A stretch of 64,000 bases of DNA from an uncultured delta proteobacterium (GTDB lineage Bacteria; Desulfobacterota; Desulfobaccia; Desulfobaccales; 0-14-0-80-60-11): contig CAWETI010000003.1 in the NCBI GenBank assembly GCA_963812015.1, positions 32,001 through 96,000 of the forward strand, in the 5' to 3' direction. Made by a program: the position numbers and the translations under genes. Under the pieces are notes generated by a model that worked only from the letters and a program-made list of their open reading frames with translations, was not told the DNA's origin and did not search any database. Positions 2,634-4,198 of the stretch are shown here, in pieces. Each line of letters opens with the position of its first letter. Positions within the stretch are counted from its first letter, which is position 1.

Positions 2634-2808
2634 TATATGATTTCATAATTATGGCAACGTATTTACCCCCCCTCACCCCGCCCCTCTCCCCCCGCAAGCG
2701 GGTGGAGAGGGGGTAGGGTAGTTCACCGGGTTTAATAACCACAAAGCCTTAAATCAGTTCCATTTTTTTCCCCTCTCCCCCAATGGGGGAGAGCGACTGT
2801 GTTAGATG

Positions 2809-3762
2809 TCAAGGGTTAACTGGTGCAAGGGGGCACCAGGGTTGCTGTTGTTTAAGTATGGCATTAAGGATGGTTAACAGTTTACGCATACAGGCGGTAA
2901 GAGCCAATTTCTTGCTCTTACCCATTGCCAGCAACCGGAGATAGAAGGCACGGATGGCCGGATTGACCCGGCAGGCGGCCAACGTAGCCATATACAAGGG
3001 AGGCCGCACCCGGGCCCGGCCACCCCAAACGGTGCGCTTGCCCCGCATCTGACCGCTATCGCGGTTAAAGGGGGCCAACCCCACCAGGGCGGCGATCTTC
3101 TTGCGATTTAAGGTGCCTAACTCCGGCACCCAGGCTAACAGGCTTTGGGAGGTTAAGGGGCCGACTCCCGGGACGCTCTGGAGGAGTTGATCCTTCTCCA
3201 GCCAGATGGGGCTTTGACGGATGAAGTCGTCCAAATCTTGCTCCAACTCCTTAAGTTGTTCTTTAAGGGATTGGAGGTTGGTTTGCAGGCTTCTGCGGAC
3301 CCGTGGGGAGAAAGTCATGGATAGGCGATTTTTCTCCATGACCAGCATCTCCACCAGTTGCCGGCGCCGGCTCATGAGGGCGGCCAATTCCTGTTGATGC
3401 TCATCTGGCCAGGGTCGGAGGGACGGTTTCAGCGCCTCGGCAAAATGAGCCAGAACCGCGGCGTCGATCTTATCGGTTTTGGCCAATCTGCCGGAGGACC
3501 GGGCAAAGTCTCGCACCTGACGAGGGTTAATAATGTGGGCCGGCAGGTCAGCCTGCCGCAAGGCGGCGGCGGCCAGGATCTCATAGCCACCGGTGGCTTC
3601 CAGGAGGATGAGCTGGGGCTTAAGGGACAAAAGTCGGACAACGAGGGCCTGGATACCGGAGTCGTTGTTGGACTCCCGGAACCGGACCTCTCCTGGCCGG
3701 ATGGCGATGTCTAACTGGTCCTTAGAGACGTCAATGCCGACAAATACGGATTCAGGGTGCAT
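2809..3762 (-). CDS. IS110-family recombinase/transposase (DEDD RuvC plus Tnp domain)
   Basis: GIDVSK, LLEATGG, KTDKIDA (DEDD), SVPGVGP and NRDSG (conserved Ser); ATG 3762 with GGGAGG RBS. Confidence 0.96.
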
Positions 3763-3769
3763 AAAAAGC

Positions 3770-3935
3770 CTTGGCCTCCCGTCCTTGCAAGATACGGGCT
3801 TCAAAGCCCGGGCGACTGTTCGGGTTAATGCCAGGGCGACGTGGCGGCCACGCTCTCACCGCGGTCTTGAAGGACCAAGGGTTAGGACGGCCTGCCACGC
3901 CGCCATCAGGAGCAGTACTGCTCCTGATGGCCTGG
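3770..3935 (-). ncRNA. Bridge RNA of the IS110 element (boundaries approximate)
   Basis: On minus: 28-nt perfect palindromic hairpin (3903-3930); target loop CCTAACCCT (3886-3878), GGTC/GACC hairpin, GAGAG (3857-3853); donor loop ACAGTCGC (3819-3812), CGGGC/GCCCG hairpin, TGCAAG (3789-3784). Confidence 0.9.
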
Positions 3936-4198
3936 TTCTTTAATGACCAAACTATGTACCGGTTCCCTTTAACATACAAGGGTTAGGGTGAGGGGGAAAT
4001 AATCTTCACAGGCTAAGAAATACGTTACCGTATTTATAAAAAGCTGTACTTAGCCGCCCACGTTAACCCAAAACTCGGTGGGGAGAAAGGCGGGAAGGCC
4101 GTGCCGGGAGAGCCTGGTTTGGCCATGAAATTTTTTCTGATCATCAGGCGAATAATTGACAGGATAGAACTTTTAGAGTAGTCAATATTAGGGGTATT

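Follow-up and report, generated by a model that had tools for sequence, protein, structure and literature searches.

An IS621-type insertion sequence with a readable bridge RNA and a probable recent history of movement among REP targets in an uncultured delta proteobacterium

We describe an insertion sequence of the IS110 group in a 64,000-nucleotide stretch of DNA from an uncultured delta proteobacterium (contig CAWETI010000003.1, positions 32,001 to 96,000), hereafter called the window. The element occupies 2792–3978 of the window and is read here as a complete insertion sequence of the IS621 type that probably moved in the recent past, a reading to which we give a probability of about 0.92. 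An initial annotation, made from the letters of the sequence, had proposed an intact and probably active RNA-guided recombinase of this type. The sequence-level hallmarks of an IS621-type bridge recombinase considered below agree with that proposal, and the genome carries eight near-identical copies in which the reading frame is open. Coordinates are positions in the window, and features of the element are on the minus strand unless stated otherwise.

Read on the minus strand of 2400–4300, the element is 1187 bp long and runs from the right donor (RD) at its left end to the left donor (LD) plus one copy of the CT core. These boundaries were set by reading, and the 1185-bp body with flanking CT dinucleotides occurs eight times in the genome. 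At the left junction the order is CCTAACC (3987–3981), CT (3980–3979) and TGTAT (3978–3974). The first of these is the left target (LT, 3981–3987), which lies within a flanking repetitive extragenic palindromic (REP) sequence and is the same as the first seven nucleotides of the left target guide described below. The CT at 3979–3980 is the left copy of the core, and CT is found at both ends of all eight full copies. At the right junction the order is ACAGTCG (2800–2794), CT (2793–2792) and CTC (2791–2789), where ACAGTCG (2794–2800) is the LD and forms the final bases of the element. The right copy of the core and the right target (RT) make up the 5' arm of a 9-bp REP hairpin, CTCTCCCCC-ATT-GGGGGAGAG (2773–2793). 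Both junctions therefore read as previously reconstructed, with a target of CCTAACC-CT-CTC and a circle-junction donor of ACAGTCG-CT-TGTAT. The earlier extent of 2792..3980 keeps its end at 2792, and the element proper, with one copy of the core, ends at 3978. The non-coding left end is 216 nucleotides long (3978–3763, with the ATG at 3762) and only 15 nucleotides separate the stop codon from the core at the right end. A long non-coding left end, a short right end and a 2-bp core on each side are the anatomy of the IS621 type.

The recombinase gene (2809–3762) encodes 317 amino acids with a DEDD RuvC-like domain, a coiled coil and a Tnp domain, and contains the sequence FNRDSGQ. The protein matches PF01548 (DEDD_Tnp_IS110; 2.8e-25) and PF02371 (Transposase_20; 2.4e-18), in both cases above the curated cut-offs, and with 235.8 bits it exceeds the cut-off of 140 for the NCBIfam equivalog NF033542, "IS110 family RNA-guided transposase". 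Its only relatives of solved structure are two transposases, that of ISCro4 (9t56, 1e-37) and that of IS621 (8wt6, 8.8e-37), and both alignments span nearly the whole length of the protein. The structural account of IS621 (PMC11208158) gives D11, E60, D102, D105 and S241, with G242, as its catalytic residues. In the alignment with chain 8wt6_A, whose numbering is the native numbering plus 2, all of these are matched by D11, E55, D97, D100 and S236-G237 of the recombinase. The DEDD residues and the Tnp-domain serine (NRDSG) that had been described as kept are the five catalytic positions of IS621, all of them conserved here.

The left end is predicted to form a stable structure, with a minimum free energy (MFE) of -94.5 kcal/mol (z = -4.47 relative to 200 shuffles). 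The MFE fold, computed over 215 nucleotides, opens with a 5' hairpin, behind which lie two modules that are each made of a stem, an internal loop and a hairpin. The 5' stem-loop (3902–3931) has 13 base pairs and a four-nucleotide loop; its presence had been recorded correctly, and its extent, formerly 3903–3930, is corrected here. In two relatives, L099 and L100, a perfect hairpin of different sequence is found in the same place. Read on the plus strand, 3902–3931 is followed by CTGGTTCTTT and scores as an intrinsic-terminator-like site, which could halt outside transcription entering the element. The first module is the target-binding loop (3838–3901), in which an outer stem encloses the left target guide (LTG), an inner GGUC/GACC hairpin (3863–3876; 3876–3873 paired with 3866–3863), and the right target guide (RTG) with an adjoining handshake guide. 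The second module, the donor-binding loop (3768–3837), is delimited by the fold and the alignment together and consists of a basal stem, a CCCG/CGGG stem, the left donor guide (LDG), a CGGGC/GCCCG hairpin (3810–3806 paired with 3799–3795), and the right donor guide (RDG) with its own handshake guide.

We assembled a consensus structure from 80 loci that encode relatives of the recombinase in species-representative genomes. Removal of six loci without the conserved second-loop motif, 16 upstream-identical duplicates and one that was too short, and of seven near-identical paralogues left out by hand, gave 50 loci and, with the window element, an alignment of 51 sequences. The four consensus helices (23 pairs) are 93.8% paired, compared with 74.6% in shuffled alignments and 36–49% when the partner column is slid. 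Changes on both sides are seen in 19 of the 23 pairs, and the observed covariation score was reached by none of 500 shuffles. The outer stem of the target-binding module contributes 12 pairs (double changes in 11; 91% paired) and the GGUC/GACC hairpin four (double changes in all; 93% paired). In the donor-binding module, pairing reaches 100% for the CCC/GGG stem and 97.5% for the hairpin, three of whose four pairs covary. The guides fall within the internal loops of this conserved structure, as the initial annotation had expected. Across the alignment the first loop varies, in contrast to a conserved second loop, a pattern that has been described for the family (PMC11208160).

Each guide can be read against the flanks and ends of the element itself. 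The LTG, CCUAACCCU (CCTAACCCT in DNA; 3878–3886), is identical to the top strand of LT plus core at all nine positions and so would pair with the bottom strand. The reverse complement of the RTG, GUGAGAG (3853–3859), is CTCTCAC and agrees with the core plus RT, CTCTCCC, at six of seven positions. The shorter guide recognized before, GAGAG, was right in position and complementarity, whereas its length is extended here to seven nucleotides (the core plus five; 3859–3853). The LDG, ACAGUCGC (ACAGTCGC in DNA; 3812–3819), is identical to the right-end ACAGTCG plus the C of the core, and agrees with the joined ends of the element at eight of nine positions. The RDG (3784–3793) is read in two parts, AU (3793–3792) and GCAAG (3788–3784), which are separated by a three-nucleotide spacer and pair with ...AT and with CTTG(T) of core plus RD. 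A contiguous TGCAAG had been proposed at this position with one G:T wobble; the IS621 structural model reads its RDG discontiguously (PMC11208158), and with the same split no wobble is needed. The handshake guides, a concept taken from that structural work (PMC11208158), are CG in the target-binding loop (3851–3852), the complement of G and C at donor positions 7 and 6, and GA in the donor-binding loop (3782–3783), the G of which is complementary to target position 7 (C). All of the segments first picked out (CCTAACCCT, GGTC/GACC, GAGAG, ACAGTCGC, CGGGC/GCCCG and TGCAAG) lie on the minus strand at the coordinates assigned to them.

The guides of relatives follow their own flanks. For the LTG, we compared the nine nucleotides ending at the LTG column with the nine preceding the left-end start (motif NT[TA]GTAT), with registers taken from the alignment. 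Nine rows without a recognizable left-end start were dropped, identical LTGs were collapsed, and the better of two starts was used, in the permutations as well. Across 40 unique LTGs the mean was 4.7 matches at the seven non-core positions, compared with 2.45 ± 0.19 when permuted, and none of 2000 permutations reached the observed value. For the RTG, the reverse complement of the eight nucleotides up to and including the conserved AG was set against core plus RT; 37 unique RTGs gave 4.35 of six matches against 1.69 ± 0.19, which again no permutation of 2000 reached. RT positions 3–7 match in 35, 34, 26, 28 and 28 of the 37 relatives and position 8 in 10. The match thus ends after position 7, which indicates an RTG of seven nucleotides in this clade, a length known for some orthologues (Durrant et al., PMC11208160). 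The guide–target covariation that had been suggested as a check on homologous elements is therefore present on both sides of the target.

The donor guides behave in the same manner. In 40 of the 51 sequences an exact second copy of the LDG 7-mer stands at most a few bases past the stop codon (a partly circular count, as discussed below); three of the others have ACAGTTA against ACAGTTG, and eight have no match or a doubtful one. CT follows the LDG-like right end in 43 sequences, TTGAC lies 12 nucleotides before it in 30 of these 43, and the rarer LDG types ACACCTG, ACGGTTG and ACCGTTG change jointly in guide and end. All 11 rows with GCTAG in the RDG have AGTAT as RD, and in 28 rows [AG]CAAG accompanies TGTAT. 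The A/T alternative follows the first base of RD in 39 of the 40 rows whose left end is unambiguous, the single conflict being a truncated locus; four further rows are ambiguous. In addition, among the 12 relatives whose RDG is followed by a base other than G, this base complements the relative's own LT position 7 in 11, which fits the handshake-guide idea outlined for IS621 (PMC11208158).

Three close relatives, drawn from a scan of metagenomes, illustrate how targets shift. In L098 (90% amino acid identity) the RNA is the same except for the LTG, CCUGACCCU, which differs by one base (A to G), and the flank is CCTGACC-CT. L099 (77%) has the LTG AGAGAUCCA beside the flank CGAGATC-CT, and the reverse complement of its RTG is CTTCGCA where the right flank reads CTTCGCT. 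L100 (74%) has the LTG AGAGAUUCA and the flank CGAGATT-CT. All three retain the donor ACAGTCG-CT-TGTATG, and we regard them, judging from their sequences, as natural reprogramming of the first loop with the second held constant. A different arrangement is seen in L069, L084, L085, L088 and L094, where the left junction has TT before AGTAT, the right junction has CT, and the LTG ends in UU. It is as though a CT-core donor had entered a TT-core target, with one parental core retained at each junction.

The genome holds eight full copies of the element and one deletion remnant. Five copy bodies are identical and the other three differ by one, one and three bases over 1185 bp, with every guide unchanged. 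Beyond the REP, the flanking sequence of one copy is unrelated to that of the next, which identifies the copies as independent insertion events rather than duplications. Each of the nine left flanks agrees with LT plus core at eight or nine of nine positions, with a CCTRACC-like sequence followed by CT. The perfect flank CCTAACC is found at four full copies and at the remnant, and four sites fall into the 8/9 class, with the variants CCTGACC, ACTAACC and CCAAACC. Compared with the reverse complement of GUGAGAG, the eight right flanks agree at six of seven positions in six sites and at four of seven in two. The initial annotation had named copies at unrelated sites as evidence that would speak against its reading; all other copies that we found are at related CCTRACC-CT-CTC sites.

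Every N7-CT-CTC site in the genome that has a perfect LT is occupied; unoccupied are 25 such sites with a single LT mismatch and 94 with two mismatches, so that occupancy drops steeply with mismatch. Two unoccupied REP sites with one mismatch are located on the plus strand of the window, CCTGACC-CT-CTC at 12444–12455 and CCAAACC-CT-CTC at 12596–12607, and are potential landing sites for the element. A REP hairpin of the kind seen at 2773–2793 starts at the core in five of the eight insertion sites and is also present in free sites. The insertion sites L006, which has no hairpin, and L007, which has a partial one, still have a perfect LT. The targeted repeats probably belong to a live system of REPs and REP-associated tyrosine transposases, because the genome carries three intact genes for such transposases above the family cut-off (C2:1247995-1248432, C2:547777-548181 and C3:650133-650543).

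The remnant of the ninth copy (L009:1511-1566; C2, about 1263945-1264000) comprises only the first 56 nucleotides of the left end after a perfect CCTAACC-CT. It is joined at the 7-nucleotide repeat CATCAGG to sequence that lies about 60 nucleotides beyond the element in the paralogous locus L007, an arrangement that suggests loss of the element body by a microhomology deletion. Immediately downstream, part of a REP-associated tyrosine transposase is present as a C-terminal fragment (NF047646, 57 bits, under the cut-off). Further IS110-family recombinase genes, of at least two other types, are found at C2:800193-801182, C3:449988-451028 and C3:890991-892031, with fragments at C3:887279-887798. 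In the contigs of sequencing run X1 the element has about 8–11 times the depth of its flanks, although this run may be the source sample and so not independent. One contig of run X4 joins 2791 to 3979 and leaves out exactly 1187 bases; one side of this weak joint is only 20 nucleotides long, and it most likely represents an uninterrupted REP from elsewhere.

The joined ends of the element would create a putative sigma-70-like promoter. A -35 hexamer, TTGACA (2807–2812), overlaps the stop codon at the right end, and its TTGAC is the one found at the same offset from LD in relatives. A -10 hexamer, TATGTT (3971–3976), lies in the left end, where TATNNT is present in 32 of 34 relatives. Across the junction of right end, CT and left end the two are separated by 17 nucleotides. 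A promoter split across the circle junction is described for IS621 (PMC11208158, PMC11208160). A promoter scan of the integrated copy over 2700–4100 returned no sigma-70-like sites, which fits the weak expression from genomic copies reported for IS621 (PMC13626964).

By analogy with IS621, the element would be excised as a circle in which the right and left ends are joined across the CT core, and the junction promoter would then transcribe a bridge RNA of about 200 nucleotides from the left end. The LTG and RTG of the first module are predicted to pair with the target, and the LDG and RDG of the second with the joined ends, ACAGTCG-CT-TGTAT. A tetramer of the 317-amino acid recombinase may cut beside the CT cores by means of S236 and exchange strands, after which the handshake dinucleotides CG and GA would pair with the partner DNA. 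The element would thereby be inserted with CT on both sides.

Several observations weigh against the reading of the element as an intact and recently mobile bridge recombinase system. Expression, circle formation and catalysis are inferred from IS621. The contigs of four DNA runs contain no joint of right end to left end, although contigs cannot reveal rare circles. The RTG carries a systematic U:C mismatch to the usual target, and at two insertion sites its match is the 4/7 given above. In the single-sequence MFE fold six LTG bases are paired with G-rich bases on the RTG side, which partly closes the first internal loop; this arises because LT is C-rich and the core is shared, and none of these pairs is present in the consensus structure. 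A search of 2400–4400 against Rfam 15 in E-value mode gave only chance-level matches (such as sX15 and isrK), all below the gathering scores, and no bridge-RNA family was seen among the matches. Finally, the right ends of relatives were located by the LDG itself, so that the count of LDG and LD agreement is circular in part; support independent of this search comes from the CT that follows, from the constant offset of TTGAC and from the joint switching of variants. Some of these points would be expected if the element were a bridge system by descent that is now immobile, either silenced or with a defective RNA or protein, and if its copies were old insertions or segmental duplications. To the missing circle junction such an explanation can add that no RNA evidence was found, that the integrated copy lacks a sigma-70-like promoter, and that the RTG is mismatched. 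However, the near-identity of the eight copies and their uniformly open frames, the unrelated flanks that mark separate insertions, and the filling of all perfect target sites make immobility improbable, and weak expression of integrated copies is reported for IS621 as well (PMC13626964).

A role for the RNA in choosing the target could also be doubted. The choice might instead fall mainly to the protein through recognition of the REP hairpin, in which case the RNA of the left end would serve simply as a 5' leader or as a regulator of recombinase translation, and its likeness to the flanks would be incidental. The targets are indeed REP hairpins with the core and RT as 5' arm, some relatives have a Shine-Dalgarno sequence that is covered by the second module's basal stem, and a target stem-loop is described as contributing to the specificity of ISPpu10 (10.64898/2026.03.19.712850). 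Yet the guides covary with the flanks over 37–40 independent guide sequences, including those of relatives whose targets are not REP-like, and L006 and L007 have perfect LTs with an absent and a partial hairpin. The hairpin of ISPpu10, moreover, is described as a layer additional to base pairing and not as a replacement for it (10.64898/2026.03.19.712850). We consider hairpin recognition by the protein very unlikely. Still more remote is an assignment to the IS1111 group, in which a seekRNA is encoded in the right end. The recombinase family is common to that group (PMC11208160), but the anatomy of the ends contradicts the identity, which we reject: the structured RNA and all guides lie in the 216-nucleotide left end, subterminal inverted repeats of 7–17 bp are absent, and a right end of 15 nucleotides excludes the seekRNA type.

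With the element taken as a bridge recombinase system, two additional layers of control can be imagined on top of the known mechanism, a REP hairpin gate and a coupling of guide and enzyme supply through RNA folding, and we put them forward tentatively, as the less probable outcome. The REP hairpin, which starts exactly at the CT core and holds RT, might act as a structural gate for insertion. Such a gate would explain the use of sites with a perfect LT and a poor RT, as well as the tolerance of the RTG for a fixed mismatch. In the donor-binding module and the bases up to the ATG (3763–3837), the basal stem (GCC.UGGC with GCCA.GGC) takes in the ribosome-binding purines AAGG/GGAGG (3766–3776), and UUUUU follows it immediately ahead of the ATG. 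This stem may link folding of the RNA to translation of the recombinase or to termination: folding of the bridge RNA would end transcription or block translation and so tie the supply of guide to that of enzyme. Sequestration of the Shine-Dalgarno sequence, by a TCTCC-like strand pairing with GGAGA, is convincing in about 14 of the 47 relatives scored and weak or absent in the others, with the start codons of some relatives imprecise. Judged from the titles listed, no literature on Shine-Dalgarno sequestration by the basal stem of the donor module was found. If true, the hairpin gate and the folding-based control would add to the known mechanism and not replace it.

The element leaves the known mechanism unchanged and is a fresh example of the bridge recombinase systems described in 2024, a system type that is already known. 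Its value lies in providing, from a sediment bacterium that is uncultured, a fully annotated bridge recombinase of natural origin, with all six guide segments, a junction promoter and nine genomic target sites mapped, and with close relatives that display retargeting through one or a few guide changes. It could reasonably be entered in orthologue screens, and it offers a clear setting in which to study how such elements fill a REP family. The suggestion that this member may be undescribed holds only in a narrow sense. The best relative in species-representative genomes has 61% amino acid identity. However, metagenomes contain many protein clusters that are 89–97% identical, mostly on contigs of 1–4 kb and named "transposase" at most, and NCBIfam already names the family an RNA-guided transposase. 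In addition, the supplementary donor list of Durrant et al. (2024; PMC11208160) includes the donor 14-mer ACAGTCGCTTGTAT 148 times, and their target list includes the REP target CCCTCACCCTAACCCTCTCCC..., so that both halves of the element's specificity are already on record, separately. The rows inspected that carry the target CCCTCACCCTAACCCTCTCCC... belong to an orthologue whose donor-binding loop differs from that of the element, and the element's own 17-nucleotide loop string had no matches in the searched parts of these supplementary data.

The closest well-studied counterpart is IS621 of Escherichia coli (PMC11208160, PMC11208158; PDB 8wt6). The two share both protein domains, the five catalytic residues, the CT core, a long left end and a short right end, and a 5' hairpin followed by target-binding and donor-binding loops. 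When the RNA is compared by eye with the published template, CCGU, a 9-nucleotide LTG and UGG recur in order, the LDG follows CCG(G/A)A, and the RDG is split as AU...GCAAG. Handshake dinucleotides after the RTG and RDG, a promoter split over the circle junction and REP targets are further common features. The donors are nearly identical, ACAGTATCTTGTAT in IS621, as the initial annotation had correctly given it (Supplementary Table 2 of PMC11208160), and ACAGTCGCTTGTAT in the element. They differ at positions 6–7, where the element has CG and IS621 has AT, and a corresponding change is seen in the handshake guide of the target-binding loop (CG versus AU). The target is different, CCTAACC-CT-CTCCC in contrast to ATCGGGC-CT-AC... 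of IS621. The specificity is thus unlike that of IS621, as had been proposed, with the donor divergent at those two positions. The RTG has seven nucleotides rather than the four given for wild-type IS621 in its structural description (PMC11208158), the proteins are distant (130 bits, E 8.8e-37), and the host is an uncultured organism from what the run label calls freshwater sediment.

ISCro4, or IS622 (PDB 9t56; 10.1101/2025.05.14.653916), is the best-scoring solved relative (E 1e-37 over residues 2–309) and is, at the level of the protein, as distant as IS621. ISPpu10 and ISPpu9 of Pseudomonas putida, as outlined in recent accounts (10.64898/2026.03.19.712850, PMC12288879), resemble the element in occurring in many copies within a single REP family and in having a target stem-loop next to the recombination site. 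In ISPpu10 this stem-loop is described as extending the 5' side and pairing with the complement of LT, whereas the hairpin of the element lies on the other side and holds the core and RT.

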